This document shows, piece by piece, positions 2,169 to 29,333 of a stretch of 33,690 nucleotides of DNA (within the stretch, counting starts at the first letter, position 1; the number at the start of each line of letters is the position of its first letter). The position numbers and the translations under genes are program-made. The notes beneath the pieces are model-generated. The model searched no databases. It was given only the letters and a program-made list of their open reading frames with translations, and was not told the DNA's origin. The stretch comes from Nemertoderma westbladi (taxonomy: Eukaryota; Animalia; Xenacoelomorpha): the NCBI GenBank assembly GCA_032718475.1, contig JAUCBJ010008564.1, positions 1 through 33,690 of the forward strand, read 5' to 3'.

Positions 2169-3521
2169 CTAAAGGTGCCCCTCGATCTTCCATCGATTCT
2201 TCCATGAGGCACTGTCCCGCTGCCCCCCTATAGCTCCTCTTATCTTTCGACCCACTTTCCTCGCCAATTCCAACTCACCAGGAATTGGTTCTCCCTCTTC
2301 CGCCACCCTAAAATCGGGTCTCTCCGCCGCCTTCTTAACTTCCTCGTCTCTTGGCATCAAAATGCCACCTCCCACCTTGTTGTCTCCCGGCGGCAGAATG
2401 AAAAGAAAGTGAAAGAACAGGCAAAACAGAAGGTACAATAGTAATCCTATCCCTTTCCATCCTGTCTTCTCACTCGAGCTCCCCCTTGTCAGTATGCCTC
2501 TCAACCGGACTGGCGTCTCTTCCGGACACTCCTCTGGACACTCCTCCGGACACTCCTCCGGACTATTGTCCTCCTGACACTCCACCGGACACTCCTCCGG
2601 GTTGTCCTCTGGACATCTCGCCGTCCGCTCCTCTCCATCCCCATACCGATACTTGCTGGGACCCTTGTTCCATCCCATTGCCTCTAAGTCTTCCGCATCA
2701 AATCCATTCTCCTCCGCCCACTCTCCTACTGTTACTTCCCCGTCTGGCTCATCTACCACCTCCGGTTTCTTCTCTTCATCCTCTGTGTCTACGGTGCCTG
2801 GTAACATGCACCCTGATGTCTCAGTCACCCTGGATGGAATCTTGGTATTAACTGGGCCGCTAAGCGTCCATCCGAACGGCGTGAGGATCCCCGTCGGATC
2901 CCGCTGTCTGTCTTTGCCGAAGACCGTCTGCATTCTCTCATGGGCCGTCGGGCAGTCCATTCCTACTATAATGAATACCTTCCTAACGTCCACCTCTGGT
3001 ATAGAGAAATCGATACTGTCCAGGAATCTATATTGTTCAACCTCAATGTTGGTTGGTCGCCTGGCGTTGATATTTATCGATTCTATCACCTGGATGGGGT
3101 CGATGGTCGCCCCATAGTCGCATCCCGGTGCAATCGCTGATATCCTGCACCGCCCCGTCCTCATCTCCAGGACCTCATCCTTACTTGAGACGGTAGTTAC
3201 CGCCATTCTATTCGGCCTCGTCTTTAGCCCTATTTCTTTGGCCACCCAGTTCTCCACCAGCGTGAAGGCTGCTCCGCTGTCGACCAGCATTAATGTTGTT
3301 ACTGATCGACCGCCCTCTCCTGATATCTTCACTGGTACTACCCCGAGTAGTACTTTCCTCTTCCTTCTTGCTACTGTCGTGCTTGTAGCCATGGTTTGGC
3401 CTCCAGTCTCATCCTCTCTTGCTGCTGTTTCTCTACACTCTCCGGATCTGTGTCCTTCTACCACACATCGATGACATAGTCCATTTGCGTCTGTGTAGGC
3501 TATATGATCTTGTTTGGGCAA
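2169..3521 (-). CDS. Outer element Gag C-terminal zinc knuckle + BEL/Pao aspartic protease + acidic PEEC repeats + hydrophobic segment
   Basis: CHRCVVEGHRSGEC knuckle; VLLGVVPV...LMLVDSGAAFTLV; IIVGMD; TPFGWTLSGP. Same frame as 3618-4772, separated by one TGA at 3618-3620. Confidence 0.8.
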   Translation of the reverse strand: MPKQDHIAYTDANGLCHRCVVEGHRSGECRETAAREDETGGQTMATSTTVARRKRKVLLGVVPVKISGEGGRSVTTLMLVDSGAAFTLVENWVAKEIGLKTRPNRMAVTTVSSKDEVLEMRTGRCRISAIAPGCDYGATIDPIQVIESININARRPTNIEVEQYRFLDSIDFSIPEVDVRKVFIIVGMDCPTAHERMQTVFGKDRQRDPTGILTPFGWTLSGPVNTKIPSRVTETSGCMLPGTVDTEDEEKKPEVVDEPDGEVTVGEWAEENGFDAEDLEAMGWNKGPSKYRYGDGEERTARCPEDNPEECPVECQEDNSPEECPEECPEECPEETPVRLRGILTRGSSSEKTGWKGIGLLLYLLFCLFFHFLFILPPGDNKVGGGILMPRDEEVKKAAERPDFRVAEEGEPIPGELELARKVGRKIRGAIGGQRDSASWKNRWKIEGHL

Positions 3522-3617
3522 TGCTTGCCAGTGCTTACAACTCCTGGTCTTATGGGTTCCTTCCCGATGTAATTGATATTCGAATCCTGGATTATAGGGT
3601 TCCCTGTATAGTCCCTC

Positions 3618-4772
3618 TCATATCGTGCCTAGGTTTATATCTACTGATTTAGTGTTTTGGTTGTCTAGACTCGGCCTACTGGGTATGTTGGGATTATGTT
3701 TATTTGTGTTGATATTTTCTTTCTGTCCCTGCCACGGTTTGGCCCTACTCCCAGCTAACTGTGGGCTTGTAGCCCCCTGTGTGGCCGCGTGTGGTAGCGA
3801 CTGTCTCACTCTCGGGAATGGATCTGCAGGATTGTGTTCGGGTTTAGGCCTGTTGTATTCGGTCTTTGGCGCCTTCCCCAAACTATCCTCACTATAGACT
3901 GGGTCTGTGATCAACTCGGCTTCGTAGTTGAGGAAGTTTGACATTTCCTCTAGCCCTGGCTCCGCACCTTTCTTCTCCTGAGTGGAGAAGGCGATCTTCC
4001 TCCACTTGCTCCACAGCCAGATTGGCAGTGCCTGCGCTATCGTGGTGATGTTATTAGATGCGTTGAGTTCGTATGGCGTGTCTAGCGTCTTCAGCACGAT
4101 TAACGCCTTCTCGACTTTGTTCGCAAATGTCTTTATGCTAACGGGGTTATCCTGTAGGCCACCCGATGTTATACCCCTCAGGGTTTGCCGGATGATCTTG
4201 GCCGGGTGGCCGTACTCCCTGTCTAGCGCCCGCCACGCTGTCATGAAGCCGCCCTCGATGCCCTGGTACTGCCTCACGAAGTCGTATGCTGGGCCTCCTG
4301 TATGCACCTGTAGATATTTTAGGCACTCCGCCTGCGTCAAGTTCTTACATAATATCTCGTTGCTGTACATGCGCCGAAATTGCAGGTATTCTTCCGGCCT
4401 ACTTCCGTCGAATTTAAATGGCTCGACTGGTGGTAACTCGATCATGGTCTTTAATGCATCGATTAGTGTCGCCATTCCCATTGCCTGTGCTTCCAATGGG
4501 TTAGAGGGATGCTGTACAGATTCTCCTGTTGGGTGCGGTCCGCCCGTCCTATCTGTTGACCTTCTTTGTTGCGTCGGATATATCATCGGGGGTAGTGGCC
4601 CCCTCCATATTTCCGTGTCGCACGACCTGTTCTCGTCCAGGGGGTTCGATGTTCTCATTGCTGTTCGAGTATATTGTCGATATTGTAATGGGGGAATGTC
4701 ACCCTGCCCCCCCCCCCCCCCACCGGTATGTTTGGTACTGGGGTTGATGTTAATATATTGGGGCCCATACAT
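3618..4772 (-). CDS. Outer element BEL/Pao Gag capsid-like domain (DUF1759-like)
   Basis: LPPVEPFKFDGSRPEEYLQF...LKYLQVHTGGPA...AWRALDREYGHP...LPIWLWSKW matches the BEL/Pao Gag pattern. Confidence 0.85.
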   Translation of the reverse strand: MYGPQYININPSTKHTGGGGGGQGDIPPLQYRQYTRTAMRTSNPLDENRSCDTEIWRGPLPPMIYPTQQRRSTDRTGGPHPTGESVQHPSNPLEAQAMGMATLIDALKTMIELPPVEPFKFDGSRPEEYLQFRRMYSNEILCKNLTQAECLKYLQVHTGGPAYDFVRQYQGIEGGFMTAWRALDREYGHPAKIIRQTLRGITSGGLQDNPVSIKTFANKVEKALIVLKTLDTPYELNASNNITTIAQALPIWLWSKWRKIAFSTQEKKGAEPGLEEMSNFLNYEAELITDPVYSEDSLGKAPKTEYNRPKPEHNPADPFPRVRQSLPHAATQGATSPQLAGSRAKPWQGQKENINTNKHNPNIPSRPSLDNQNTKSVDINLGTI

Positions 4773-6075
4773 CTATCTGCAATAACTCTCCCCTCCCCTG
4801 GATATATGTTATGTCCCTGGATATTATAGTCATGCTGCTGTGCTGGTACCGATATAGGCCTATCCACTTCTTGCCTACTTACCGGTATGTACTCCGCGAC
4901 TTCCGGGTTTAATCCCGTCGTTCGCGCTACCCTATCGCCTACACTATTTCTCCCAGCATGGCCTATAATAGTATGTGCAGTAAGGCCTACAGTATGTCCT
5001 GCAGTCTGCATGTGCCCTTCCGAACCGAAGTTCAATCTTCTCGAATCTCGAATCTCCCCGCGACTACCGTACTCTCGATCGGCAGCTATATCCCATCGGG
5101 AAGTTTCTCTTCGATCCCCTCTCCTGTTCTCGTCTTCGTATCAGTACGTCCTGTACCCTTCTCTTGGCGTGCGGTGCGTCTCTCCGGGGCGACGGCAATC
5201 TTCCGGAGTTCGACCCCACTGACTCCCTAACTCCATCTCTACTACCGACGGCTCGCTATCCGTCCTCGCTCTCCGGTTGCTCCTAGCAACGACTCTTCTA
5301 TTATCTTCACTTCTTCTCTCTTCGACCTCTCGGTTAAACTCTACTATTCTTCTTCTCTCTTCGACCTCTCGGTTAAACTCTACTAATCTTCTTCTCTCTT
5401 CTGACTGGGCTCGACGTTTCGTCGCTCGCCCACTCTCGGCGCTAAGATCTGACTCTACTCTGTCCGGTTGGACCCTCCTGGGGATACTCGTCATCCCCCT
5501 ACTATTCTCCGTCGTCGGGTGCCGTGGTTCACCTAACTTGCCCCGCGCATTATCCGCCGACGCCTGTGGGACATTCTCTGCCCCCCCCCCCCCCTCTCGC
5601 TACTAATCTCTCGTGGTGGGGCGCCCGTAGCCCCCCCCCACCCGCTATCTCTGCCTCTCCCTCTATCACTGTGTTGCCTGGTAGGCTCCCGTCGGGTTGA
5701 CTCAACCCCGCTACTCCCTGCACACTAACTACTTGGCCTACCAGGCCCCCGTCGGGCTCTCTCACCCCTGCTCACCCCTACCAGGCTCCCATTGGGGTTT
5801 CTCACCCCCGTTACTCCCTGCCTACTGACTACGTGGCCTACCAGGCTCTCATTTGCCGGGCCACCTGCGTCCGCCACGTTTATATTAATAGCACCATTAT
5901 TAACATTGTCTTCTAAATCAATTAAATTATTTTGTACATCCGAATTAGAAACGGGATTATTTTGGTCGTTTGAATTAAGATTGTTATTTGAATTATTTTG
6001 CGTAATTATATTATTTGAATTATTTTGTATATTCGGGTTTAGATTATTATTTAAATTATTTTGTAAATTCGAATC
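4773..6075 (-). pseudogene. Low-complexity N-terminal gag region of outer element (Asn-rich, Gly-rich, RRIVEFNREVEE repeat), frameshifted
   Basis: A chain of overlapping minus ORFs (5725-6285, 5550-5765, 5141-5494, 4655-5035) with shared internal repeats (LVG.VVS.QGV.G). Some breaks fall at poly-C runs. Confidence 0.65.
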
Positions 6076-6077
6076 TA

Positions 6078-6766
6078 CAGTACAGGCCACCAGAAAACGC
6101 AGATTTGTACAATTGTGAACACATTTTATCAAATGTGTACCAGTGTAATGTAATGTTGTTGAATGGGACAATTGAACATAATTGAATTGGCAACAACCAA
6201 AAATTTTTCTCCAAAGGATACAATTGAATACTTTTGAAACGCTTAGTAATCTGGAAACTCTCTGTAGTTTGCCGCGAACTGTCACTCACTGCAGCTGGAA
6301 ATGCGATAAGGATATTGTTTACCTTTATAGTGTGCGGTTAATAGTGTCTAGTAGGCAGGCCTATAGTTAGTGATGTTAAGCCATCTTCTGGTGTTTCTCT
6401 GTGCCCTCTCGGTGTCAGACTAATGGCGCGACATCTCCCTGCACTAAATTAATTATTCAATGGTCTAGGCTCCTCCATCCATATACCCATCCACTCCCAT
6501 ACACTCCATGAACTTCCATGTGGTCTTGTATGTAGTTCTCTCTCTACCAATACAGCCCATGTCCGCAATGTTACGCCCTGGGGGCTCTCTCATTTACGTG
6601 ATATCAGACATACATACACAAAGCCTTTGCCGGTCCCCCCCAGTTAGCCTCCTGCTGTGTGATCTAGAAGATAACTTGCCATAAACTGCCAATCAGATGA
6701 CTTGAACAAATGTGTTCACATGTGATCACATTGGATGAAATCTGCTTTTTCTGGTGGCCTGTACTG
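6078..6766. mobile_element. Non-autonomous Tc1/mariner-like DNA transposon (MITE), 689 bp
   Basis: TIRs CAGTACAGGCCACCAGAAAAcGCAGATTT / AAATCTGCtTTTTCTGGTGGCCTGTACTG, with a further inverted block TGTGAACACATTT/AAATGTGTTCACA. TA duplication at 6076-77 and 6767-68. Excision restores the host frame ...NSNNV|DSNLQNN. No transposase ORF. Confidence 0.92.
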
Positions 6767-6768
6767 TA

Positions 6769-7126
6769 CATTATTTGAATTATTTCCTACATTTATATTA
6801 GGGTCGTTCGGATTTAAATTACTATTACCAGGCAAAGTATTATTTCCTGAAATGAAAGTTTGATTAGGGTTATCTACTATGGTACTATTAATATTAACGT
6901 TCTCTACTGTATTATTATTACCTCCCCCCCCCCCCCCCCCCGCCCGTACGGTTACACCAGTCTTGGGTCTGCCGTCCGGTCCCTGTAAGTGGGGTATTAA
7001 CAAACGTTTTCACTACTTCTGGCTCCTCGTAAATACTGCCCGAGCCAGCCTCACTTTCTGACAGCCCCAACTGCGCCAGTTCTAGTCGGCGCTTCTGTTT
7101 GGCTTGATATTGCATAAGCCCCCTCA
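6769..7126 (-). pseudogene. Outer gag fragment between the inner LTR element and the MITE
   Basis: LRGLMQYQAKQKRRLEL... continues the 26083-26991 ORF in frame. A frameshift in the poly-C run (~6924-6941) leads into the Asn-rich frame. Confidence 0.8.
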
Positions 7127-7131
7127 ACCGG

Positions 7132-8280
7132 TGTTCGCGCTTCCAAATTTAGATGTCTTCTAGATTATAAATCGACTTTAGCCTATGACGAGTATTTGAT
7201 ACACTACATTAGCCGAAGCCAGTCTATGCGCGACCATTCACCCGCTGGATATACCCGGGAGACTGGATTCGGAAGCTTTGACCTTATTGCGGTGTAGGCC
7301 TACTGTATTATTCGACTGATTGTTAATATATAATTTCTGACCAATATTATTCACTTTCGGGAAATATTAACAGTTCCTTTAGGACGTGGCGCTCTAAATA
7401 TGTAAACAGAGTTATGACTTACACTAGACACAATGGGATGGCTATGGATTCACGTATAAAGCGCATTCTTTAGGAGATGCTTTGTTATCAGTCACAATCA
7501 TGCACACTACCGCACAATGCTGCACACCGATCTGCCGACCTTCACTAATTTTAGTCACATATAAAGAGAACAACAACCGACACATGTAGTGCCTATGAAA
7601 TAGCATTAGATTCACTCCAAAACCAATATAATGTAAGTCGCAATTGTTATATGTAACCGGTCTCTTACCTTCAGTATATCAAGAAGATTGGGGGTTTTAT
7701 AATTATTTATCGATATTATCCAATATAATAATATTCCATCAACTGATATAATTAATAACCGACAGTAAATAGCAGTAAAAATGCGGTGTTTGTAGGTGAC
7801 AATATGATTTGCATTGATATGCAGTGTGTTGAGTTGGTATGGTTTGATAACAGTTATACGTTTCTATGACCAAAGCCTACTAATGTTTGGCTAAAGCCTG
7901 AAACACAGAAATTCCAAAGCCGGTCTTCTGGCTGTGGACAAAATACACATACTGACTGATATTTCTGTATACAATCTCCAACACAGAGTGAAAACCGCTC
8001 TGATTGGTCGACCAAACAAAGAACGAACAAAGAACAAAGAAAAGTTACACGTGGACACAGCTGATAGATGTCGTCATCGGAGTTCCGATGTTTAGAGTAT
8101 TTGGCTTATTGCGACATAAAATCGCTAGTTATGTCCGCTAAAGTACACATACAGAAGAAATGGCTTTTTATGTCCACTAAAACACCGGTACAGTAAGGAA
8201 ACGGCTTTTTATCTCTGTTAAAACACCTACAGAGTACTTTGTGGGAAAAATAACCAGCTAATTCCGCAAAAGCCTTTACA
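7132..8280 (-). repeat. 3' LTR of inner element (1149 bp)
   Basis: Direct repeat of 24900-26087. About 13 substitutions by eye, plus 24-, 22- and 7-bp indels that account for the 39-bp length difference. Confidence 0.96.
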
Positions 8281-8290
8281 CCGCTCCCAG
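8281..8290 (-). promoter_or_regulatory. Short purine-rich tract (PPT) of inner element
   Basis: Minus strand CTGGGAGCGG immediately precedes the LTR start TGTAAAGG. Confidence 0.55.
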
Positions 8291-8306
8291 AAAATGGGAT
8301 TTAATT

Positions 8307-9362
8307 CTATAAAATATAAAAAATCACAGTTTCTAAAATATAAAAATACTCTAAACAGTTAGTCTTTCTTACGCGGACTGCGTTTACGCAGTTTTTTGAG
8401 GCTAGCAAGAGTCCTTTTCTCTTTGGGGCGAGCCACTTTACTAGGAGGGCTATAACTCCTGGGTGAAGGGTGCAATACATTGCATCAGAAGGTTTAGGAT
8501 TACGATTGGTGTATCCGCCGGTCGAGGTACCTGGTTGATCGATATCAACTTCAGTGGAGCGAGGTCTAACGGCCTTTAGGGCGCGTCTTAGGACAGCAGC
8601 TCCTACTGGTCCCTGACGAGTCGTCTGGACAATAGTGGTAGGTGGACCGTGAGTGGTGAGAAACTTCCTCGGTTTAATGGATCTTTCCAGCTCGCGTTCT
8701 CGGGCTCGATATTCGTAGGGCCGTCGAGATACTTCCTGTAACTCAGGGTGCGAGTTGATAAATAAATCGCCATACTCAGGGTCTTGACGGATGAAATTGA
8801 TCAAATGGTATGAATTAATATCGTTAGGATTGACGTTCCTGAGATATTTTCGAACAAATTTGGTGGAAATACACTCACCAACACGCTTCATTAGTTCGTA
8901 ACTCGGTGTGCGTGTTTTTTGTTCAACTGACGCGAATAGATAAGGATGGAACGCGTAAACTCCCTCGTAGGCGCGTCCAGGGTAATAGTGATGGCGTGAC
9001 TCACAATGTAAATCCGCGTTCGCTTCCCAAGCTCGGATGTAGCGCAGAGTAATCATCTCATCTACGCTTTCCAAATCGCGGTTAAAAGGGCAATTAAAAC
9101 TGGCATGTCCTTTAAGTTGACAGTGGTGGCATTGAGTCATAAATTGGGGGCAAACTGCAAAAATGTGTGAGTTATTGAGTCTGCAATACGCACAATAGAT
9201 CTCCATCATCGGTTGTTCGTGGAAATAGGAGCAGGGTACGTCTGAGTCCATAGGGGTGAAATGATCTCTCGATGCGCATAATCGGCAACGTTTTCGAGAA
9301 ACATAGTTGGCGTGCCGATAATCGTATGCGGTGAGACATTGTGGACCTTGATACCATTCCAA
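8307..9362 (-). CDS. Extra ORF, C-terminal part: clustered CCHC zinc fingers
   Basis: CRLCASRDH-x9-C, CAYCRLNNSHIFAVCP, CHHCQLKGHASFNCP. Overlaps the upstream ORF (-1 shift). Confidence 0.75.
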   Translation of the reverse strand: MEWYQGPQCLTAYDYRHANYVSRKRCRLCASRDHFTPMDSDVPCSYFHEQPMMEIYCAYCRLNNSHIFAVCPQFMTQCHHCQLKGHASFNCPFNRDLESVDEMITLRYIRAWEANADLHCESRHHYYPGRAYEGVYAFHPYLFASVEQKTRTPSYELMKRVGECISTKFVRKYLRNVNPNDINSYHLINFIRQDPEYGDLFINSHPELQEVSRRPYEYRARERELERSIKPRKFLTTHGPPTTIVQTTRQGPVGAAVLRRALKAVRPRSTEVDIDQPGTSTGGYTNRNPKPSDAMYCTLHPGVIALLVKWLAPKRKGLLLASKNCVNAVRVRKTNCLEYFYILETVIFYIL

Positions 9363-10657
9363 GACGTAGCGTTATCGCTGCTCCAGGGCGCTGTAGGCTG
9401 AATCTCCTCAGATTCTAAGCATATTGGTTCATCTTCCAATTGCATAGCTGAGATAGGTGCGGCTGTCTCCGCAAGCGAACCCACTGTCTGAACTTTCACG
9501 ACAGAATAACCTGTGGGTATTCGAGGTCTTTGTATAACAGATGAATGTAAGTTCTGTATACAAACGTCCTTGAAAAGGGCGAATCCCGCGCTGTCTAACT
9601 TCTCCGCAACTGAGTCTCTTAGGCTGAGTTTGGTCAGAGCGCGGTCCTTGAACTGACTATCAACGTTATGGAACGGAGTCAGAAAGCGCCTGAAACATTC
9701 GAAGCGGATGAATTTATTGTGTTCATCTAGCTTGGCGAGTTTGGTTCCAAGTATTAAGGGATGGGCGCGTATGGTACGACTGCACACATCGGCTAGCCAA
9801 CCGGCAAGTGCGGCGTTTTCAAAGATCGTGTATATAGCTAAGGAGGGACGAAGTGGAACACTCATAAAGCTATACACGGCGCCAGGTGCGGTCAATGGTC
9901 CGTCAAAGTATAATCGAGAATAATGATCTCCATATACTTGTTGGTAATTGATAGGATTTCCAACCTTGAAATTCCATCCGTATTCTTGAAAGGCAAGATG
10001 TCCTATGGAGGTTCGTTGTACTTTAGTAATGCCGCTGGGTGTATTTGCATACATAGTGCGGAAGAAACCTCGGCCTTCTGCCCAGGGAGCAATCAGCTGA
10101 GTATCGACGAAAGGGTATGGAATGTTCTCCATGTTCCGAAAGTCGTTTTGGAGATCTCCATAAACAGCTGAGCCGATTTTAAGGATTCTTTCGTTAAACA
10201 ACATCTCGAGCACGGGCTGGGGTAACATCGATCCATCGATATCCATGGCCGGTTTGCGCTCGGTGTCGATGACATAACGCTGCGCGAGTTTGAATTGTCC
10301 ATGTCGGAGTTTCTTTTGTATTTCGGTAAGGGTCTCAAAAGAATAATCAATCACATCGGAACACGCTCGAGTGAATATGTGGGTAGAACCAGCTAGTCCT
10401 CGTATATGTATCATGCGTGTAGTTCCCAGTTCTCCAACTGGAACGCTACCTTCGTTATCGTAAGTGACAACTCCATACATCTCGATAACGTTAAGAGTCT
10501 CATTCCACTCTTTAGTGGCGTTTTCTAGAGTCATTCCCACTGGATGCCACAAGGTAGTGCATTCGCTAGCATTAGGTAGATCTCTATACTTTAAATATTG
10601 TGTAGTATATGTTTCTACATCTCCATATCGTTGTATTCTTTCCTCTTCGAATAACAC
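9206..10657 (-). CDS. Extra ORF, central part: DEDDy (WRN/EXD/RNase D-like) 3'-5' exonuclease domain
   Basis: ExoI VVTYDNEG; LPQPVLEMLFNERILKIGSAVYGDL (ExoII); FVDTQ; SIGHLA; ExoIII-like PLRPSLAIYTIFENA. The frame is open upstream past 10729. Confidence 0.75.
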   Translation of the reverse strand: MLFEEERIQRYGDVETYTTQYLKYRDLPNASECTTLWHPVGMTLENATKEWNETLNVIEMYGVVTYDNEGSVPVGELGTTRMIHIRGLAGSTHIFTRACSDVIDYSFETLTEIQKKLRHGQFKLAQRYVIDTERKPAMDIDGSMLPQPVLEMLFNERILKIGSAVYGDLQNDFRNMENIPYPFVDTQLIAPWAEGRGFFRTMYANTPSGITKVQRTSIGHLAFQEYGWNFKVGNPINYQQVYGDHYSRLYFDGPLTAPGAVYSFMSVPLRPSLAIYTIFENAALAGWLADVCSRTIRAHPLILGTKLAKLDEHNKFIRFECFRRFLTPFHNVDSQFKDRALTKLSLRDSVAEKLDSAGFALFKDVCIQNLHSSVIQRPRIPTGYSVVKVQTVGSLAETAAPISAMQLEDEPICLESEEIQPTAPWSSDNATSWNGIKVHNVSPHTIIGTPTMFLENVADYAHREIISPLWTQTYPAPISTNNR

Positions 10658-10728
10658 GTCGAGATTCCAGTGTACTAATCGAGTTTTGATGAATCCATCA
10701 AGATTATACGGAGGTATTGTCTCTTTCT

Positions 10729-11958
10729 CTATTCTGGAAACATTATAGGGTTTTCGAAAGAGTTTACTTTCACTAACTGATCCAGATGTTTCTGCAGTTG
10801 TTCGAGTTCAACAAGATCGAGAGGATTTATTAGTGGTAGAAACCTCAGACTATGTGTAGGATCTTCCGGTTTTACCATGTAATATTGCGTTAGATTGACA
10901 TAATAAGGGTGATCTTTGATCCCATAAAACGAGTTCGGTAATGGTCTAGCGCATATGTTAACCTCGTGTACCATACGACGGACAAGATCTGCTCTATTGT
11001 CCGGAGGTTCAACGAGTATACCATCAACACGAGCGGCCTCGATTGGCGGACGTTGCAACATGGGAGCGTCAGCGATAAGTCGAGATCTTAGGTTGATATC
11101 AACCGGTTGAGGCTGTGCCGTGGCGAAGAGTTTGTCTCCGAAATGGGGAACCATCGAAGGATGGATGATGGTTTTAGAATAGAGATCCGTCATAAGGATT
11201 TGAGCTTCTGGCTGGGCTAAAGCTGCTTCTTCTCTCTCACCCATTTCTATGTGTTTCTCCTCGAGCTGATTTTCCTCCGCTTGTTGTTGTAAACGCTCGT
11301 CTAGGAACTCTTGTAGAGAATAGGTTCGTCCACGTTCGATGTCTTCCTCGAGATTCTGGATTTCTCTATCGAACTGGGGTAAAGCTAATTCTTTCACCGC
11401 TTGGACTTGTTGCTGCAATTTGTGTTTCTCTAAACAATCGTAAGTTCCTTTTCCGATCTTCTGCCGAATAGCGTCTAACGCGTTTCGTACAACGCTCTCT
11501 TCGACTTCGGTAACGGGTTGTATCGGGGTTAAACCAGGACGGTTGTACGGGTTGAATGGCGATATTAGATGACCGCGTCCCAATCCGGCTAGATAGGATG
11601 TGCGAATATCTAGCGAGCCCACTACCGGAGTGCCACCGATTAATTGTTCGGGTAACACAAGATCTTTAAATAGTGAGTACAGTTCAGGGGGATCCGTTAT
11701 ACTATTAGGATCGAGTGTTTGAGGTCTCACCAATGAATGAGGAGGTCTGACCGAGTATTCCGGAACTCTGATCATTGGTTTATTTAAGGATTGTTTGAGT
11801 CGAGCGAGCGTAGGTGATACGTCGAACAGGTTTCGCTCGAAACTCCCATAAGTATATCGTGTAAAACTGTGTTTAGCGCAACGTCTCCGCGGATGTTTAT
11901 GTCTTTCCGTTTGCTGATTGGGTCTAGGGCATTCGTCGCAGTAATACCAAAGACGCAC
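10729..11958 (-). CDS. Extra ORF, second fragment (unknown; Cys/His motif and coiled coil)
   Basis: 409-aa ORF. CDEC-x9-HKH-x4-C near the start and a Q/E-rich coiled coil. Overlaps neighbours by -1 shifts. Confidence 0.6.
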   Translation of the reverse strand: MRLWYYCDECPRPNQQTERHKHPRRRCAKHSFTRYTYGSFERNLFDVSPTLARLKQSLNKPMIRVPEYSVRPPHSLVRPQTLDPNSITDPPELYSLFKDLVLPEQLIGGTPVVGSLDIRTSYLAGLGRGHLISPFNPYNRPGLTPIQPVTEVEESVVRNALDAIRQKIGKGTYDCLEKHKLQQQVQAVKELALPQFDREIQNLEEDIERGRTYSLQEFLDERLQQQAEENQLEEKHIEMGEREEAALAQPEAQILMTDLYSKTIIHPSMVPHFGDKLFATAQPQPVDINLRSRLIADAPMLQRPPIEAARVDGILVEPPDNRADLVRRMVHEVNICARPLPNSFYGIKDHPYYVNLTQYYMVKPEDPTHSLRFLPLINPLDLVELEQLQKHLDQLVKVNSFENPIMFPE

Positions 11959-12605
11959 GTCCTGCAGGGAAACGCGGGTGATCGTTCTCCAGTTTTACAA
12001 TATTCCTCCATCTGTTCGAAGCTATCTGGGACGACAGGTAGCGGTCGATCGGCGGTAAGATACATCATAGTGAAATAGAGCCGTTTGAGTTCTATCATAG
12101 GGTCATGATGTATACCTTGAGGATATCGAGTTTCTAGATTTTGTTGACTGGCAATATTGAGATATGTTTCTCTCAGGAATTCCAGATAATCGTTGAAGTC
12201 GCTGCGTTTATCCGGCTCTTCAACGTCTTCTCTTTCGAGTCGGTTCCGAATAGAATTCTCGTGTTCTATTCTCGGTTTATCGTTCCGACTCCGCTGGGTA
12301 TGGTATTTAAATAAAACCATTTCCCTTTCGGTGTCTACATCGTCCGTATCGTGTAAATCGATAGGATGGCCAGTAGTTAAGAAGTCCATATACGTACCAT
12401 TACAATGTGTATAGCGAGCGGTGAATTTTCTATAGTCCAATTCACGCGTAAGTTGCTCCTGGGACATTGGCGGTTCGATATAACGACCATTGTCCTCCGT
12501 AGTAGTTGGACTAGCGTCGCCGCGTATCAAGCTATCAACAAACGCTTGTAAAGGTAGAGTATATCGCTCCCTAATACCAAGATCATCTTCTATCATCTCA
12601 GTCAT
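11784..12605 (-). CDS. Extra ORF, N-terminal fragment (unknown function)
   Basis: ATG at 12605 after an AT-rich leader; 273 aa of globular-looking composition; no signal peptide. Confidence 0.6.
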   Translation of the reverse strand: MTEMIEDDLGIRERYTLPLQAFVDSLIRGDASPTTTEDNGRYIEPPMSQEQLTRELDYRKFTARYTHCNGTYMDFLTTGHPIDLHDTDDVDTEREMVLFKYHTQRSRNDKPRIEHENSIRNRLEREDVEEPDKRSDFNDYLEFLRETYLNIASQQNLETRYPQGIHHDPMIELKRLYFTMMYLTADRPLPVVPDSFEQMEEYCKTGERSPAFPCRTCVFGITATNALDPISKRKDINIRGDVALNTVLHDILMGVSSETCSTYHLRSLDSNNP

Positions 12606-13425
12606 AGCTGCTATATGAGTTTATTAATATTATAATGAGTTTATAATTAGGCTAGCGGGCATCGCTGCCTACCCCTCTCGGCCCCCGGACAGTGCAAGAT
12701 CCTCAGCGCCGATGTACCGTCGTCGCTGTGTTTTTCGCCAACGTAGTAGCTACACAACGACAACGATAACTGGCACAAGTCACTCCACTGTCCGTCCCAA
12801 AGGCTTAGATTTACTTCAGGTTCTTACGGCAGAGTTAGGGCTACTTTCACAATTGCGACTCGCTACTGTAAACACACTTTAGTAGTAACATTCACCTATA
12901 AACGCACAAATTCCACACAACTGTCACAAATTGTTCACATTCGGGCCATTTGTCCGTTAGTCAGTGCCTTCCAGAATGCCACGTTATTATTATGTATCCT
13001 TGGATACTAGCAGTGTGCTATTTATTCCCTATGCTATTCAATGGGGCAAGCTTTCTATTGTTCTTTTAACTCACTTCTAATTCTAGCGTGGTTGTTGCTA
13101 TGGTGACATTATGGAAAGCTAGCAGTAGAATTAGGGTAATTCTCATGCATACAGATCTGGGATGCTATTTAATAGTAATTCTTTAATTGTCAATATCCCC
13201 TTTATACATGATTTTATGAATTTTATCGGCTATTGACTATATATTGGAGATTCTCGCACACTAATACACTTAATAGGGTGAATCTCCGCTCCCATGATCT
13301 ATTAATTAATGGAATTTTGGGAATGTTATAAATTGTATAAAATGACAATTTATCAAATTCATTAAAAGAGATGAATTAGAATTTATTCCCGTAAATTTTA
13401 TTATTTAATATTAAATAGACACAAT

Positions 13426-13785
13426 TTTATTCCAGAGCATGTCTGGGGACTAGGATCCTGAATTCTAGGAAATTTGTCCTTTTAAGAGTATCGGTAAGTG
13501 CTACGATATCTTAATAGACTAGAATTTTAAAGGATCTAAATTTTACAGATTTTAATTTATAGATTTTCTAGAGTTAACTTGTAAGTAGTTACTCTATGGT
13601 ATCTGTTTGACAGATTTTATAAATATTAATAGATAATATTTAAGATGGGCACCGGTTTATTCCAGAACTTGTCTGGGGACGTTAACCACTGATTCTAGAA
13701 TTTTGTCTTTCAAGTATATCGGTGGGTGCCGCGATATCTTAATCGACTAGAATTACAGATGGTCAAAGGGTTTAACAGATTTATT
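13426..13785. repeat. Two diverged ~125-bp direct repeats (230-bp period) in the IN-ORF3 spacer
   Basis: TTTATTCCAGA..TGTCTGGGGAC...ATTCTAG...TATCGGT...CGATATCTTAAT.GACTAGAATT at ~13426 and ~13656. Confidence 0.85.
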
Positions 13786-14299
13786 TTGCGTTGTATGCTA
13801 CTGTTAAAGGGACATCACGCTATATGTATTATTTAATATACGGTATGAGAGCAATATCGCAAGAAGCAATGTCAGTGAGAAGAGGCAAGTCGTTTCCAAG
13901 GTCTACCCAGAGCTTGGTTTAGCCGAGACACGAGGATCTGAATTTTGCATTCCTAATTCTCTACTTACCAATAATACTTGAATATAGTAGGAGCTTTATT
14001 GTACTTTAATATGTACGGATATTTCATCTTACTGTAGTCACGTATTTATAATGTAATACGGACAGTAAGGAAAGAGAAAAGAAATTATTTCTCGCCGTCG
14101 CACTAAATATATAATATATAAGTAATTAAGTAATAAGACTAATATATATTGCACTAATCTACTAGATAATTGCTAAAATGACATTCTACTAAATAAAATT
14201 AAAGAAAACGATTATAATAAAATTACATAATAATACGTACCTAAATATAAAATAATAAGAATATAAAATAATATAGTCACACACCCACTCCAGCCGTTG

Positions 14300-16312
14300 T
14301 TACGTTGGGGAGTCCCTAGATGTTTGCTGGATTAGGGAGGTGGTCGTGGGAAGAGTATCTTGCCTTCCATAGTTTCCGGAGAGTTCTCGGTCTCTTTCCA
14401 GTAAACATAAACGACCAACTGGGCGATTGAGCTGCTGTGTCTCGAAGACAATTCCCGGTTTATTAAAGTTACGTCGCATGACGACGAGTTCTACCGATCG
14501 CACCAAACCATCATCCGAGATGTGAGTCTCGATGATACGACCTGTCTGCCACCGCTTACGTGGAAGATCTGAATCCACAATAAGGACCCTGTCTCCAGCG
14601 CTGACGTTTTCTTGCTGCGCAAACCACTTAGTTCGAAGTTGTAGCGTGGGCAGATAATGTTTTTCGAAATGGTCAGCGAAACGACGGGATAACAACTGCA
14701 TAAGTTGCCAAGTTTGCCGGCAGTATTCGTCTCCGTCTGTGATTTCCGAGCGTGGGAGCATGGGTACAGGTTTCTTCAGTAGGAAGTGCGCGGGTGTTAG
14801 CGCTTCCAGGGAATCGGGACTCGAGGAGACTGGCATAAGCGGTCTCTCGTTGAGATAGGCGGCAATTTCCTCCATTAACGTCCGCAAAAGTTCGTCGGTG
14901 AGATACGCGCGGCACGGCACTATGAAGTGAAATGCGGTCTTCACGCTCCTGATTAATCTCTCCCAACTTCCTCCCCACCAAGGGGCGTTGGCGGCGTTGA
15001 AGGTCCAGCTAGACGCTGTTACCCTTAGCTGATCGTCCACCTGTCTTTGGTTCCAATCTTTGACGTAAGCTTTGATTTCATTGTTGGCACCAATGAAGTT
15101 CGTTCCCTTATCAGATCTCATCGTGTTACTAGTTCCAAAGCGAGCGATCTGTCGTCGTAAGCTCAATAGGAAGCTGTTGGTAGATAAATCGTTCACCATA
15201 TCGAGATGGATAGCTCTACAAGTCATACAAACAAAGATGACACACTATCTCTTGACTATAGTCCTAGCACGATATACTTCAATAGGGCCAAATAAATCTA
15301 CACCGGTATTAGTAAAGGGTGGTTCATAGAAGCTTACTCGTTCCCTAGGTAATTCTGCCTCTCGCTGTGTTAAAGGCCTACTGAATGCTTTCCTACAGGG
15401 TATGCAGTTCCTAAGAACTTGGTTCAGAGCTCTACGGGGTTTATAAAAATAATAGCGAGTTCGAATTTCGCTAAGAACTCGTTCTCTACCAGCATGATAA
15501 AGTTTGCTGTGAACATCTACAATCATCTTGATTTGTATTTCAAGATTTCTAATGAGTATGGGAAACTTGGTGTCAAAAGATAATGGAGCATTAGTTAATC
15601 TTCCTCCAACACGTATCAACCCATCTATCATTGTGCTAGAGAAACGATCCCTTAAGCGCATCTGTGGATTTCTCAACAACAGGAAATACTTATCGGAATC
15701 CTCATAGCATTGCAGGAGTCTCAGCATCTGCTTGTTGGTTTCTTCATGCTCCTGATAACTGATCTTCTCCTTCAGAAACCTGTCGGATATCTTATATTTG
15801 GGAAGATCTTTAACAACATGGACCTGCACAAATGTCAGTGGAGCGGTATCACTATTGGTCTTCGTCCTGGAGTAGTGATGATGAAAACATCGCTTTAAAT
15901 ATGTAACGGCCTTACAGAGCCGATTCCAGGAACTGTAATGATATATCGCTCTCTGCAGGAGAGGTGAGAGTCCTTGCGAGACGTCTGGTATTCCAGATTT
16001 CCAATCCCTCTCTCTGATGATTTCCACAACAGACTTATTTGTGGCTGTGGGTTTCGGATCCAAAGCGTCGTCTCCGGAAGTGTGTAGTACAGACAGATCT
16101 ACCACGGGTTTAAATAACTTCGATTTACTCGCCCGAGTTTTAGGTTTGACTTTCTCCGCTCCCTTGGCCTGTCTAATCTCTGCCGTAGTAAGATGAGGAG
16201 GCCATTCATCCTCTTCTTTGCTTAGGAAGTCGGGTCCACCTAACCAGTCTGGAGTATCTATCAGTTCTTGTGGAGTTGCTCCCCTGGAGGCGATGTCTGC
16301 TGGATTAATCGT
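14300..16312 (-). pseudogene. Inner pol: RNase H end + integrase (HHCC, DDE, C-terminal DUF5641-like), with in-frame stops
   Basis: INPADIASRG, GLIRVGGRL, HSKLYHAG...CIPC, GVDLFGP, SDKGTNFIGA, PWWGGSWERL, ALTPAHFL, YLPTLQLRTKW, DGLVRSV. Same frame as RT, broken by TGA (16313) and TAG (15245). Confidence 0.93.
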
Positions 16313-18586
16313 TCAGGGGCAATGTCTCCATTGATCCATCTTCGTGCGACTAAGTATAATGGCTACTCTTTTGGTAACGAAGACGCTGAACTGACAGACT
16401 TCATTGGTTATATACTCCAACACGAGTAAAGCATCGGTCCAATAGACAGTTTTCTCCAGTGGATAGTCGATCTGTTCTGTTACATTCCGGCCTATGGCTG
16501 TAGCGTATAGAGCCGCTTTTAACTCCGCTCGAGGAACTTTCAACTTGTTGTTTATCAATGCCTTAGAGGTAACCAAGGCGACTTTGATTCCATCCGGAGT
16601 TTTCACTCTCAGGTAGACTACTATACCTATTCCCATATCGCTGGCGTCTCCAAACACATGGAGTTGATAGGAATACGTAGGGAGAACATGACCAAAATAT
16701 GAACGGGAAATTATAAAGTTCTCGATGGCTGGTAGAGAATCTTCCCATTTCATCCACTTGTTTAATAATTCCCCCTTAAGTGGATCGTCCCATGAGTGGT
16801 TTTCAAGCCACATTTGTTGTACTAAACTCCGAGCAATCAATATAACTGGGCTAATAAATCCCAATGGATCGAAATAAGTGCTCAGGATACTTAAACAAAT
16901 CCGTTTAGTCCGAACTGGATTATCTCGCTGTTTTAGCTGGAAAAACAGGATATCTCTCTCTGTGTCCCATTTCAAACCAAGTGTCTTGGTTTCTGGAAGA
17001 TCATCTTTGATTAGGTCTAGGTCTTTCGCTCCTCGATCTTCTACCGGGATCGATTCTAGAAACTCACGGGAGTTGCTGGTGAATTTAGTTAATCGAAATC
17101 CACCTCTTTTTAAGCACTCTACCGTTCCTTTGGCGACATCAATGGCTTCTTCCACAGATGGAAGGGACTTTAAATTGTCGTCCATGTATATATCCCGTTT
17201 GATGTTGTCGATCACCTCTTTTGAGAAGGCGTCCCGGTTGTCATCAGCAGTGGTGCGCACCACTGAGCAGGCGTTTGAAGGGCTTGAGATGATCCCAAAA
17301 GCCTGGATGGTCATCCAATACTCCACCGGTTTCTGGTTGAGGTCTCCTTCAGGCCACCACAGAAATCGTAGGCTGTCTCGATCCCTATCCAGCGCCTTGA
17401 CTTGTAAGAACATGCCTTCTATATCGGAGGCGAAAGCGATTGAATATTGTCGTAATCTTAAGAGTATTCCCAACAAGGATTGGAGTAAGTTGGGTCCTGG
17501 TAACAACTCGGAATTAAGGGATTGGCCCATGTAGAGGGCGGAGCCATCAAATACTACTCGTACCTCATGGGGTTTACCGGGTTTGGGAACGTAATGATGT
17601 GTTAAATAGTACGTTCTTTCAGTTAGGGGTGTTCCTTCCGGTACTCGCTCCGCATATCCCTTGTTAATAAAATTCTTCAACTGAGTCTGATACATTTCTT
17701 TAGCTGAAGCATTTGCTGTAAGGCGTCGATGTAGTTGAGCAATTCTTTTCTCCGCCAAGGGTCGGTTGTTTATGAATTTTGGTTCTCGCTTTCGGAATGG
17801 GAGACCGATTTCATATCTACCTTGATCTTTAAGAAAATGTGTAGTTGTCTCCTGGATCTGCTTGGCTCTTTCTTCTTCTACCGATAGGGCCTTATCGTAG
17901 GAATTGGGCTCTACAGCCTCTTGAGTAAAGAATCGTACGGCGTGTTCATCTCGAGTCTTCGCGTTATAGCGCTCGATTATGTCATTCAGTTCGTCGTTAT
18001 AGTCGACTTGTCCTGATGGACGAATGACTTGACATAGGTTCCCTTGGTTTTGCCAAGTCTTATTTTCCGTAAGGATATCGATGGTATTCTCCTCGTCAAA
18101 GAGTTGGTGGATATCGTCATTATCTGAGGAGTATGGTGTTCCCTCAGTTGGGTCGTCAACTTCACTGCTCTCTACTTCCCATTCACTTAATTGATATACC
18201 TGTTCCTTTGGTAATCTTTCCATGAGAGTTCTACGGGAAGGGCCAGTAAAGTACCAACCTACTCTAGTTCTTCCCGCATAGACTTGTAATGGTTGCGGTT
18301 GAGCAGGACGTTTCTCCAATGTCTCAAGCGCTTCATGCGCATTTTGGCCGATGAGTATTTGCACTCCACGGTAATCTGTGTTGAATCTAGGTATATTAAG
18401 CTGCTGGGTGGAATCGTCCTCATCCCAGTTATAAGGTTCTACTTGGCTGGTAGCGAAGTTCTTTATCGCCACCATTTTTACTGACCTTATACTATGTTCT
18501 CCTAGTTCATCCTGGGGGGTGGACAACGCACCTACATAATAATCCGCTATTACTATAGATTTCCAAACCTGCATAATTCCTGACAT
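16313..18586 (-). CDS. Inner pol: protease C-half, reverse transcriptase, RNase H (Pao peptidase A17-like region)
   Basis: ILIGQN, TRVGWYFTGP, YYLTHH, VRVVFDGS, SLNSELLPGP, SDIEGMFLQV, YMDD, KTLGLKW, FDPLGF, LHVFGDAS, PRAELKAA, WTDA. Confidence 0.96.
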   Translation of the reverse strand: MSGIMQVWKSIVIADYYVGALSTPQDELGEHSIRSVKMVAIKNFATSQVEPYNWDEDDSTQQLNIPRFNTDYRGVQILIGQNAHEALETLEKRPAQPQPLQVYAGRTRVGWYFTGPSRRTLMERLPKEQVYQLSEWEVESSEVDDPTEGTPYSSDNDDIHQLFDEENTIDILTENKTWQNQGNLCQVIRPSGQVDYNDELNDIIERYNAKTRDEHAVRFFTQEAVEPNSYDKALSVEEERAKQIQETTTHFLKDQGRYEIGLPFRKREPKFINNRPLAEKRIAQLHRRLTANASAKEMYQTQLKNFINKGYAERVPEGTPLTERTYYLTHHYVPKPGKPHEVRVVFDGSALYMGQSLNSELLPGPNLLQSLLGILLRLRQYSIAFASDIEGMFLQVKALDRDRDSLRFLWWPEGDLNQKPVEYWMTIQAFGIISSPSNACSVVRTTADDNRDAFSKEVIDNIKRDIYMDDNLKSLPSVEEAIDVAKGTVECLKRGGFRLTKFTSNSREFLESIPVEDRGAKDLDLIKDDLPETKTLGLKWDTERDILFFQLKQRDNPVRTKRICLSILSTYFDPLGFISPVILIARSLVQQMWLENHSWDDPLKGELLNKWMKWEDSLPAIENFIISRSYFGHVLPTYSYQLHVFGDASDMGIGIVVYLRVKTPDGIKVALVTSKALINNKLKVPRAELKAALYATAIGRNVTEQIDYPLEKTVYWTDALLVLEYITNEVCQFSVFVTKRVAIILSRTKMDQWRHCP

Positions 18587-18588
18587 GT

Positions 18589-20682
18589 TTAACTTAGTTC
18601 GGAATTGGGTTGTCCAGCAAAGATGTCTTCGGCTAGTTCTTTGTCGATGAATGTTCCTGTGCTACCGGAGTCAAGGAGGGCGTTCACTATATAACTCCTT
18701 TTAGATCCGTGGACCCTCAACTGTACTACTGGAAATTTTCGGATTCCTACATTGGAAGTTGGTGCTTTCCAAGATGGTTGTCGGTCAGAAGTAGTTAGGG
18801 GGAGCTCGCTATCGGTGTCCTTTTCATACGTAAGTGCTCGATACACTGCGGTATTTATCAGGTAACAGGATTCGTTTTCATCGGAGAATTCGTCCGTATA
18901 GAATCCTTCCATCTCAGAACTTTGGTCAGTGTCGTTCACATCACTGAATTGGACATGCAGTTCGGAATCACTTACCTGACTCGGGCTGTTTCGTTCGAAT
19001 TCAGTATGCAACAAGAGATGATGTTTTGCGCCGCACTTCGCACACCTTGCGTCTGAGTAACAGGTTCGCCGTTGGTGTCCTTGTCTGAGGCAATTATAAC
19101 ACAACCGCTTATCCCACATGACTTCCCGTCTATCCTTTAATGATTTCTTTAGGAATTTATCACACACATTCAAACGGTGGGTCCCATCACATAGCGCACA
19201 TTTCGGTTTGATATTACTTACCTTATTTTGAGTAACGTTGTGCACACTCGTTCTTTCTTCGGGCTTTCTTACCTGAATTCTCTTAGGAGACGTAGGAGGA
19301 GTTTTTCTTACCTGTTCTCTCCTGTCATTGGTTCGAGACTTGAATTTACTTACGTCTTTAGGCGTTTTATTGACATAATAAGATCTTTCAGTGTCTTTCC
19401 CGCTGTCTTCTTCTTGAGAAGCCTGGCTTTCGCCGTCGTCGGTATAACACACTGGTGTTACCTTTCTCCTAGAAACGGGTTTCTCACTTACCTTGTTTTC
19501 CGGTGTCTTCTCTTTGGACTGCTTTAGGAGCTGTAATTTCACTTCTCCATCTAAGAATGACATGAGATCAGCCATGGTAGGGTCTCGTCGTTGTTGTTCC
19601 ATCATATATAACACTTTCTTATCCCAGCGTGTACCTACTCCACCCTTAGGTAAAGTAGAGGCCACGGCTCCAATAACCATAGAACTCTGATATTCATGAG
19701 ACTTACCTAGCCAATCTAATTGTCTACAGATCTCCTGAATCTCATCGGAAAACTCTATAATCCCGCTGCTAATGAACTTTCGGGGCGCTACCAATTTTGC
19801 ATACAAATACCTAGCTATGTTATTCCTATTACCATACCTGGTGTTTAGTGTATCCCAAACTTGTCTTAATCCATCTGGATGTCCAATAAACTTTAACGCC
19901 ATTAACTTGGGAGATCCTTCCAAGCACTCAATGAGGAATCTAAGTTTCTCTCCATTAGATAGCACAGAGTTCTGTATGTTATCTTTGTAATATTCATTAA
20001 AAGGTAACCATTTCATCTCATCTCCATTGAACTTGACTATCTCTCCCACCTTTACCGCTTGACGGGCTTCGGTTCTAGCCATTTGACGCGTAAAACTTTC
20101 TTGGGCCATCGTGTTATTTAATATCGAGTTATCGGTATATAAATTTCTCGGATTATAATCAGGTCTATAGGGAATATCATTGTCAACCGGTTTATAATTA
20201 CCCTTAATAGGGTTTACTATAGGAGTTTCCACTTCACTAGCTGTATAGATGCGTGTAGGCTCCACACCTTGCGCATGAAATACTTCAGGCCTAACAGGTT
20301 GACACATTGTTACAGGGGGTGGTGGTATACCCTTTTGTATATTTACTAATTTATCGTGTTCTAACGCGATACTTTGCTGCACTTCTTGCAACTCTAACCT
20401 ACTTTCCCTTACTGTTCCCTTAAACTGATGAACAGTCTCCTGCATCTGCCCGAGCAGGAGATTCATCCCTCGCCGCCCCTCATCCACCCACTCGACCGCC
20501 GAAGCAGGAGCCGCCAACGTAGTAGCGGGCAGACGAGAGACGACGGGCGATAAATTCTTGATGTCTTGCTCGGCGTCCAGGACGGGTTCGGACTCGGGAA
20601 CAGTCCTACTGGGCACAGGTAGTTTAGTACTGTGCAAAGGGAATTTAGAGGTAGGTTCTGGGAGTACAGGTGTCTCTATCAC
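18589..20682 (-). CDS. Inner Gag (capsid-like domain, three CCHC knuckles) and protease N-half
   Basis: KFNGDEMKWLPF...LNTRYG; CALCDGTHRLNVC, CYNCLRQGHQRRTC, CAKCGAKHHLLLH (BEL triple knuckle); ALLDSGSTGTFI. Confidence 0.95.
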   Translation of the reverse strand: MIETPVLPEPTSKFPLHSTKLPVPSRTVPESEPVLDAEQDIKNLSPVVSRLPATTLAAPASAVEWVDEGRRGMNLLLGQMQETVHQFKGTVRESRLELQEVQQSIALEHDKLVNIQKGIPPPPVTMCQPVRPEVFHAQGVEPTRIYTASEVETPIVNPIKGNYKPVDNDIPYRPDYNPRNLYTDNSILNNTMAQESFTRQMARTEARQAVKVGEIVKFNGDEMKWLPFNEYYKDNIQNSVLSNGEKLRFLIECLEGSPKLMALKFIGHPDGLRQVWDTLNTRYGNRNNIARYLYAKLVAPRKFISSGIIEFSDEIQEICRQLDWLGKSHEYQSSMVIGAVASTLPKGGVGTRWDKKVLYMMEQQRRDPTMADLMSFLDGEVKLQLLKQSKEKTPENKVSEKPVSRRKVTPVCYTDDGESQASQEEDSGKDTERSYYVNKTPKDVSKFKSRTNDRREQVRKTPPTSPKRIQVRKPEERTSVHNVTQNKVSNIKPKCALCDGTHRLNVCDKFLKKSLKDRREVMWDKRLCYNCLRQGHQRRTCYSDARCAKCGAKHHLLLHTEFERNSPSQVSDSELHVQFSDVNDTDQSSEMEGFYTDEFSDENESCYLINTAVYRALTYEKDTDSELPLTTSDRQPSWKAPTSNVGIRKFPVVQLRVHGSKRSYIVNALLDSGSTGTFIDKELAEDIFAGQPNSELS

Positions 20683-20756
20683 TGAAGGGGTGGCTTCGAG
20701 AACAGGCCTAATTATTTCAGGCTCATCTACTATGGTAGGGAGTCTTTCTATTTTAA

Positions 20757-22393: not shown

Positions 22394-22527
22394 GTTTGTT
22401 TGTACAGTTGAATGCCTACTGCTATATTACAGTTTAAGCAAGTCTAGTAATTCAGTATCACCGTTAGCCTAGTAATTAATTACCGATATCGTTACTCTAT
22501 GTAACGTGATATATATACAATATATTA

Positions 22528-23022
22528 GAATACCGGTATACAATTATAGTATGTATATAAGTATTATTACAGACTAGGTTTGTCACAGAATACCGGTATA
22601 TAATTTCAGCACAAATATATAAATATATAATAAGCCTATCGTGAATACCGGTATACAGCTTACTCTTATAGTATATATAAGTATAATTATGGACTAGAAT
22701 TAATTACAGAATACCGGTATATAATTTCAGCACAAATATATAGAAATATATAATAGGCCTATCGTGAATACTGGTATACAGCTTACACTTATAGTATGTA
22801 TATAAGTATAATTATAGACTAGAATTAATTACAGAATACCTGTATATAATTTCAGCACAAATATATAGAAATATATAATAGGCCTATCGTGAATACCGGT
22901 ATACAGCTTACACTTATAGTATATAAGTATAATTATAGACTAGAATTAATTACAGAATACCGGTATATAATTTCAGCACAAATATATAGAAATATATAAT
23001 AGGCCCATCGCAAATACCGGTA
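22528..23022. repeat. ~124-bp tandem repeat x4 in inner 5' UTR
   Basis: Units each contain two GAATACCGGTATA motifs; starts near 22528, 22643, 22767 and 22891. Confidence 0.93.
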
Positions 23023-24551: not shown

Positions 24552-24899
24552 GTACAATCTGAGCAGGCTTACACGTCTTCTGCTCAATATTAGCCTACAA
24601 ATAAATACAACTGACAGAAATAAGTAAACCATACAAAGGAATAAGGGGTGATCAATCCCTAATCCCCTAACAGCCTACAATATACAATATATCACAATCG
24701 AAATAATACTGCTGTACCTGTACTGCTGTAAGTACCGGTTCGGGTGGTTAGGTAGTTAGGCCTACTGGGTACCGGTTGACCGGTACTTCAGCTTTATTGC
24801 CTACTGCAATACAGAAGCAATAACTGTTATTGTTCTTACCAGAACAATATTAAACTGTATTTATTGCCTACACTGCAATCAGAATTCAATAACTGTTAT

Positions 24900-29303: not shown

Positions 29304-29333
29304 CTTAGCGTACGCGTATCATTAAAAGTTTAT

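Follow-up and report, generated by a model that had tools for sequence, protein, structure and literature searches.

Locus and gene structure

The stretch of DNA analysed here (the window, 33,690 nucleotides, to which all coordinates refer) is positions 1–33,690, forward strand, of the Nemertoderma westbladi contig JAUCBJ010008564.1. At 7132–26087 it carries, on the minus strand, a BEL/Pao retrotransposon of 18,956 bp whose third open reading frame (ORF3) is the subject of this work. The element is bounded by two minus-strand long terminal repeats (LTRs), the 5′ LTR at 24900–26087 (1188 bp) and the 3′ LTR at 7132–8280 (1149 bp, with a short deletion close to its end when compared with the 5′ LTR); both start with TG and finish with CA, and they are 98.2% identical over 1134 nt. 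Copies of the target-site duplication ACCGG lie at 7127–7131 and 26088–26092. The gag-protease region (18589–22426, minus strand) is spread over three frames and holds DUF1759, zinc knuckles and an aspartyl protease, and pol (14300–18661, minus strand) holds a YMDD motif, Peptidase_A17, Integrase_H2C2 and DUF5641, with two in-frame stops in the window copy. The Pfam matches exceed the cut-off and stand in the expected order (DUF1759, E = 7e-12; Peptidase_A17, E = 2e-36; DUF5641, E = 7e-20; Integrase_H2C2, also above cut-off); the reverse transcriptase was recognised by its YMDD motif, a Pfam match to it being absent. Thus, the element has the TG...CA LTRs and 5-bp duplication of BEL/Pao as well as BEL-specific domains in the order gag, protease, reverse transcriptase, RNase H and integrase. 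The clades named in this superfamily are BEL, Pao, Tas, Suzu, Sinbad, Dan and Flow.

ORF3 sits after pol, which ends at 14300, and before the short polypurine tract (8281–8288, minus strand) that adjoins the 3′ LTR. A preliminary description of the locus had seen four same-strand frames between integrase and this tract, linked by −1 shifts, probably forming one gene and belonging to the element. The coordinates and offsets agree with that account, and ORF3 lies within both the LTRs and the ACCGG duplication. The pieces, all on the minus strand, are A (11784–12620, with the first ATG at 12605), B (10729–11994), C (9206–10807) and D (8307–9371). Since the starts of successive frames differ by 3n+2, every link is a −1 shift. 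Pieces A and B match no family, the latter having a Cys/His cluster at 11869–11940 followed by proline-rich and Glu/Gln-rich helical stretches; piece C contains an exonuclease-like domain, and piece D ends in a hydrophobic tail.

That the four pieces are probably one gene is supported by sister contigs from four runs (three samples and three studies, one of which may be the window's own source). Contigs aligning to 8290–12700 were present in all four runs, in numbers of 25,062, 18,707, 8,640 and 335, and covered 30 of 30 bins, depth here not being a measure of copy number. Of the 16 length differences relative to them, the 12 with the best support were considered; they include single-base ones in all three overlap zones of ORF3 and a fourth one close to the 3′ end. 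Because the sister contigs differ by a single base in each overlap zone, the breaks appear to be particular to the window copy, and ORF3 of the family is probably one frame, estimated at about 1,380–1,430 codons. The fourth difference further implies that piece D probably leaves the correct frame before its tail. Programmed frameshifting as the link from piece to piece was considered and rejected, as the sister contigs vary in length at the overlap zones. Between the long frames of gag, gag-pol and ORF3 (8307–22426) there are six frame changes, each of them −1, a bias that hints at biased assembly error besides decay.

ORF3 is under selection

We classified 39 of the 40 best-supported substitutions, out of 774, omitting one that falls at a break; the sample is thus a best-supported subset and not a full codon-model test. 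Among the sites segregating between sister contigs, 18 of 20 are synonymous, against a fraction of 0.336 expected for random transitions (p = 2.6e-7). The excess persists (14 of 15, p = 2.4e-6) when five low-frequency sites, probably from one divergent contig, are left out. Changes private to the window copy, in contrast, are synonymous at 7 of 19 sites (p = 0.81), as in neutral decay, and the two classes differ by Fisher's test (p = 0.0008). Synonymous variants are present in each of the four pieces, and a gag-pol control with fewer sites gives a like pattern (4 of 5 synonymous among segregating sites, 1 of 11 among private ones). The synonymous excess among segregating variants indicates purifying selection, and ORF3 has long belonged to the element as a selected gene. 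The window copy is dead, as its frameshifts, its two pol stops, its gag in pieces and its neutral private changes make plain.

These data bear on whether ORF3 is a passenger, that is, a recently captured host fragment or a nested insertion that does nothing for the element. In favour of this one may cite the broken frame in the window copy and the existence of deletion forms. However, gag and pol are broken likewise in the same copy; the composition of ORF3 (GC 0.454, third-position GC 0.416) equals that of gag (0.451, 0.405) and pol (0.452, 0.450); no terminal repeats surround ORF3 among the repeats listed; and purifying selection among sister copies extends over all four pieces. The preliminary description had proposed to decide the matter by sister copies and selection. 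ORF3 is present in the former, the synonymous excess largely refutes the passenger idea, and we consider it highly improbable. A nested insertion was rejected on the same grounds, namely the repeats listed, the composition shared with gag and pol, and the selection on ORF3.

The exonuclease-like domain

The domain in piece C lies at 9764–10528 (minus strand). By remote homology it appears to be RNase D/WRN-like and DEDDy-derived. In the numbering of P0002, ExoI comprises D26 and E28 (at 10459 and 10453), ExoII comprises K119 and D127 (the latter at 10156), D144 belongs to a DTQ motif, and ExoIII comprises Y235 and E239 (at 9832 and 9820). All motifs named in the preliminary description are therefore present. 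Its assignment of a DEDDy core stands as regards a DnaQ/RNase D-like relationship, but ExoIII reads YxxxE and not the canonical YxxxD, both in the window protein and in its homologue P0001. Lacking the defining YxxxD, the domain is classed as DEDDy-derived rather than as a canonical DEDDy member, and with Glu replacing Asp in both proteins catalysis is unproven. The Trp and Gln that lead into ExoIII are lost in the window protein and kept in P0001.

As Pfam gives no match for the exonuclease frame, the assignment depends on remote-homology tests. The NCBIfam family rnd (ribonuclease D) matches the domain with E = 0.0037. A two-sequence profile, used unguided, matches 28 of 201 bacterial genomes, 22 of the 28 matches being DEDDy proteins in RNase D-sized frames of 372–467 aa. 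Against a profile of 70 bacterial domains, the window domain reaches 11.0 bits, a score that none of 2500 shuffles attained. In a 34-row MAFFT alignment (A5) of 32 bacterial domains (31 of them WRN/EXD-like), P0001 and the window domain, D26, E28, K119, D127, L228 and Y235 are invariant, so that every row has K119 and, after the KxG strand, the ExoII Asp, D127. Identity to any cellular DEDDy nuclease is below 30%, and there are two insertions of 30–35 residues.

P0001, of 648 aa, is the sole homologue found among 1.84 billion representatives by a length-free search (E = 4.4e-5), and shares 29% identity with the window domain over 171 residues. A second search, in limited length classes, returned no homologue for piece C and only P0001 for P0001 itself or for the two-row profile. 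When residues 40–290 of P0001 were searched against the Atlas, 25 of 30 matches carried PF01612 (score 0.93; top match 0.95); this unguided search, which covered P0001 only, supports a DnaQ-like fold for that protein. The top Atlas matches are Basidiomycota clusters. The Cys/His fingers that had been noted earlier resolve into three tandem CCHC-type zinc knuckles at 9090–9287 (minus strand) in piece D, two strict and the first loose, apart from the cluster in piece B. P0001 likewise has three knuckles, and the layout of exonuclease plus CCHC knuckles is thus common to both proteins.

Other collections yielded little. Sequence searches of the PDB gave no exonuclease match for the window protein or P0001, only nucleocapsid-type knuckles for P0001; five of five scans of viral contigs found nothing, and prokaryote genome contigs gave no match. 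Searches with tblastn in plasmids and phages produced chance-level matches only, and PHROGs matches only at E > 0.08. Metagenome contigs held no match for piece C and gave one 25-residue match, to L001. The latter, at 644–1088 of a small JGI contig, is a WRN-type exonuclease fragment, broken or intron-split, and with 56% identity over 25 aa it came nearer to the ExoII region of the window protein than any other match found. The collections were searched without a custom motif scan, and distant family members may have escaped.

For the fold, a single-sequence AlphaFold model of the domain reached a pLDDT of 29, and an alignment-guided model a mean of 57.6, with 78–89 in residues 101–150 and about 73 in the D26/E28 strand. 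The guided model best matches RNase D (Z 12.9, root-mean-square deviation 3.4 over 170 residues), with Rrp6, Nibbler, EXD1 and WRN close behind. These top matches span no more than about 2 Z, too little to name a DEDDy subfamily. With E. coli RNase D, Rrp6, WRN, EXD2, Nibbler/Mut-7, EXD1 and Egalitarian the ORF3 domain shares the DxE of ExoI, the KxG...D of ExoII, DTQ and the ExoIII Tyr; unlike these cellular nucleases, it has the ExoIII Glu and the two insertions.

The altered ExoIII raises the alternative that the product is a pseudo-nuclease, dead or weak, that only binds RNA in the manner of EXD1, Egalitarian or Maelstrom; it could then decoy silencing proteins, or act as an adaptor in the transport or packaging of the element's RNA. 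Both family members carry the Asp-to-Glu change, the window protein has also lost the ExoIII lead-in residues, the protein is long, with helical and proline-rich parts and several zinc fingers, and EXD1 and Maelstrom are described as inactive DEDD derivatives in piRNA biogenesis (PMC5408684). On the other hand, all four metal-ligand positions are acidic and the Tyr is retained at 29% identity, where one would expect a dead site to lose its acidic residues. We regard a pseudo-nuclease as a real possibility, though on balance a doubtful one.

ORF3 is not an envelope gene

In BEL/Pao, the third genes described in PMC13524379 and PMC3118150 are envelopes. The env-carrying elements (roo, with an F-type envelope, and mosquito elements with a Chuviridae-like gB-type envelope; PMC13524379) resemble the window element in the place of their third gene, which follows integrase and precedes the 3′ LTR. 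Unlike those envelopes, ORF3 matches no fusion protein and has no transmembrane helix. Over 19 residues, hydropathy peaks at 0.93–1.36 in the four pieces, and the maximum of 1.36 indicates no such helix in any of them, no dedicated signal-peptide predictor having been applied. The envelope candidate was therefore rejected, in line with the preliminary description; a probable nuclease fold and zinc knuckles are found instead.

Priming, size and surroundings of the element

Directly after the 5′ LTR lies an 11-nt primer-site-like sequence (24889–24899, minus strand; repeated at 24820–24830), with no TGG tRNA site. Its exact complement is located inside the LTR (25661–25671, minus strand; also 7847–7857), at LTR position 417, and is a candidate self-primer. 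The complementarity extends over 11 of 11 nt, was equalled in 3 of 4000 shuffles, and is paired in the predicted fold. Only 3 of the 2459 leader 11-mers have such a complement in the LTR, two of the three being the primer site and its duplicate. The element is without a tRNA primer site and, judged by its sequence, looks self-primed. Because the 11-nt motif is nearly palindromic, a transcription-factor site is an alternative.

This geometry is like that of Tf1 and Tj1, which are Ty3/gypsy elements whose primer site adjoins the LTR and is complementary to an LTR-internal sequence (PMC4600332); the window element, in contrast, is BEL/Pao, and the likeness is known here from sequence and predicted fold. 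It raises a further possibility for ORF3, namely that it encodes an active nuclease serving the maturation of RNA from the element itself, which would either trim the self-primer to the 11-bp duplex or clear away RNA ends inside the particle. The lack of a tRNA-type primer site together with the paired LTR complement speaks for this. RNase H is the enzyme that cuts the Tf1 primer. RNase D-type enzymes process the 3′ ends of structured RNA (PMC5408684), which is also in favour; but the Tf1 primer arises by a cut at a defined site (PMC4600332), and we consider own-RNA maturation unlikely.

BEL/Pao elements usually measure 4.2–10 kb (PMC3118150), and the window element, at 19 kb, is about twice that size. 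It reaches this length through 1.2-kb LTRs, a 2.5-kb leader and a 1.7-kb spacer. The leader (22430–24899) contains tandem arrays of units of about 120 bp and about 290 bp. The AT-rich spacer (12606–14299, minus strand) has AG dinucleotides at its end, directly before the first ATG of ORF3, and is a candidate splice acceptor or internal promoter region.

The unusual size invites the idea that ORF3 is a proofreading 3′–5′ DNA exonuclease for the reverse transcriptase, enabling faithful copying of a 19-kb genome, and the fold is indeed common to the WRN and Pol I exonucleases. Yet the 22 DEDDy matches of the unguided profile fall in frames that are RNase D-sized and not Pol I-sized, ORF3 is separate from pol, and its CCHC knuckles suggest single-stranded RNA. 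Since the nearest matches belong to the RNase D type and not to polymerase domains, and the gene stands apart, proofreading is the weakest of the three roles proposed in the preliminary description, and is in our view very unlikely.

The element is inserted in an older, same-strand BEL/Pao element (2169–7126 and 26093–27108), an ORF of which is interrupted at 26088 by the 5′ LTR; on the other flank, the older element has DUF1759 at 3618–4772 and a protease at 2169–3617. Farther along, at 28863–33689, is a cluster of AT-rich minus-strand ORFs with weak Pfam matches only (Josephin, adenoviral protease), which we take to resemble the capsid, penton-like and protease genes of Polinton/Maverick elements.

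Discussion

ORF3 is a real accessory gene, and as far as we have found its BEL/Pao carrier is new, while a DEDDy third gene is already known in rotifer elements. The bdelloid elements Juno and Vesta carry DEDDy ORF3s with a DEED motif, shared with Athena/Terminons, whose activity is described as not demonstrated (PMC5408684, repeated in PMC6431247); the preliminary description had mentioned DEDDy ORFs in some bdelloid retroelements. The concept is thus less new than first thought, since DEDDy third ORFs have been published for other LTR retrotransposons. For BEL/Pao, we found no exonuclease gene in the literature, at the level of titles and abstract openings and with Repbase and subscription papers outside the scope, and the word 'exonuclease' does not occur in the BEL/Pao survey PMC3118150 or in PMC13524379. 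Within that scope, the earlier remark that no DEDDy ORF is known from BEL/Pao is supported.

The rotifer genes of Juno, Vesta and Athena and the window ORF3 are alike in being RNase D-like DEDDy genes in the env position, with no transmembrane segment and with one Asp-to-Glu change in the catalytic motif (PMC5408684). They differ in several respects. First, the carrier is BEL/Pao, whereas the four bdelloid clades of PMC5408684 are Juno, Vesta, TelKA and Mag. Second, the catalytic motif is D-E-D-E, as opposed to DEED. Third, ORF3 of the window element has about 1,400 codons and three C-terminal CCHC knuckles. Fourth, it is under purifying selection, whereas the bdelloid enzymatic ORFs are reported to show no significant departure from neutrality (PMC5408684). 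Among cellular enzymes, TbRND, the Trypanosoma brucei RNase D (PDB 7C42; PMC7797062), likewise has a DEDD exonuclease followed by tandem CCHC fingers, and the alignment-guided ORF3 model matches it with Z 10.2 and a root-mean-square deviation of 4.1 over 176 residues. TbRND, unlike ORF3, is a cellular enzyme of the mitochondrion; its DEDD motif is intact, and a short linker leads to its four fingers (PMC7797062); the shared layout is probably a parallel architecture and gives no evidence of direct descent.

We propose that the selected ORF3 may encode a 3′–5′ exoribonuclease that trims single-stranded RNA ends for the benefit of the element, host small RNAs of silencing being its most likely target. 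This is the leading reading, though we hold it at somewhat short of even confidence. In this scheme, ORF3 would be translated from a subgenomic RNA made by splicing or by internal initiation, a possibility suggested by the AG dinucleotides upstream of its ATG, and the product would be a soluble RNA 3′-end nuclease. By analogy with TbRND, which trims small guide RNAs and for this requires its CCHC fingers, bound to the RNA upstream of its 3′ end (PMC7797062), the knuckles might hold the RNA and feed its 3′ end to a two-metal site. The Asp-to-Glu change in ExoIII may well still support catalysis; activity is favoured because the four metal-ligand positions are all acidic across 29% identity. If the enzyme is active, small RNAs of silencing, or the precursors of these, would be a somewhat more probable target than RNA of the element itself. 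Host small RNAs are favoured because selection acts on ORF3 through transposition even though most BEL elements manage to replicate with no such gene.

Several observations weigh against this proposal. First, every family match of the exonuclease frame falls below curated cut-offs, the significant match of the 70-domain profile is confined to the ExoII region, and two other alignments put ExoI at residues 65–67 or 90–92, so that the ExoI register is likely rather than certain. Second, strands 37–56 of the model have pLDDT below 50, and the fold matches are partly circular, because DEDDy proteins made up the alignment that guided the model. Third, the residue changed in ExoIII matches Asp230 of TbRND, which binds the A-site metal directly (PMC7797062), and activity may thus be lost. 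Fourth, about two thirds of the ORF3 protein are without an assigned function, and P0001 was compared at the protein level. Fifth, the sister contigs are short, and the linkage of ORF3 to pol in other copies is not spanned at full length. Finally, contigs in several runs skip 1.7–2.9 kb of ORF3 (about 8500–12230) or of pol (about 14430–18110), showing that non-autonomous deletion subfamilies exist.

A broader version of the proposal would have a highly amplified BEL/Pao lineage encoding an active exoribonuclease, with a non-canonical D-E-D-E site and knuckles, that destroys or over-trims piRNAs or siRNAs and so acts as an enzymatic suppressor of germline silencing, and that comes from a pool of nuclease genes moving between BEL/Pao, gypsy and Penelope-like elements across animals. 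We offer this as a tentative and rather doubtful possibility.

The role of nuclease genes in retroelements has been open since their description in rotifers, where the cases are low-copy and show no clear selection. The family described here is abundant, strongly selected and from a different superfamily, and this type of gene is therefore not a rotifer curiosity. An ORF3 product that attacks small RNAs would amount to an enzymatic counter-defence supplied by a retrotransposon, and a dead one to a retroelement version of the RNA adaptors EXD1 and Egalitarian.

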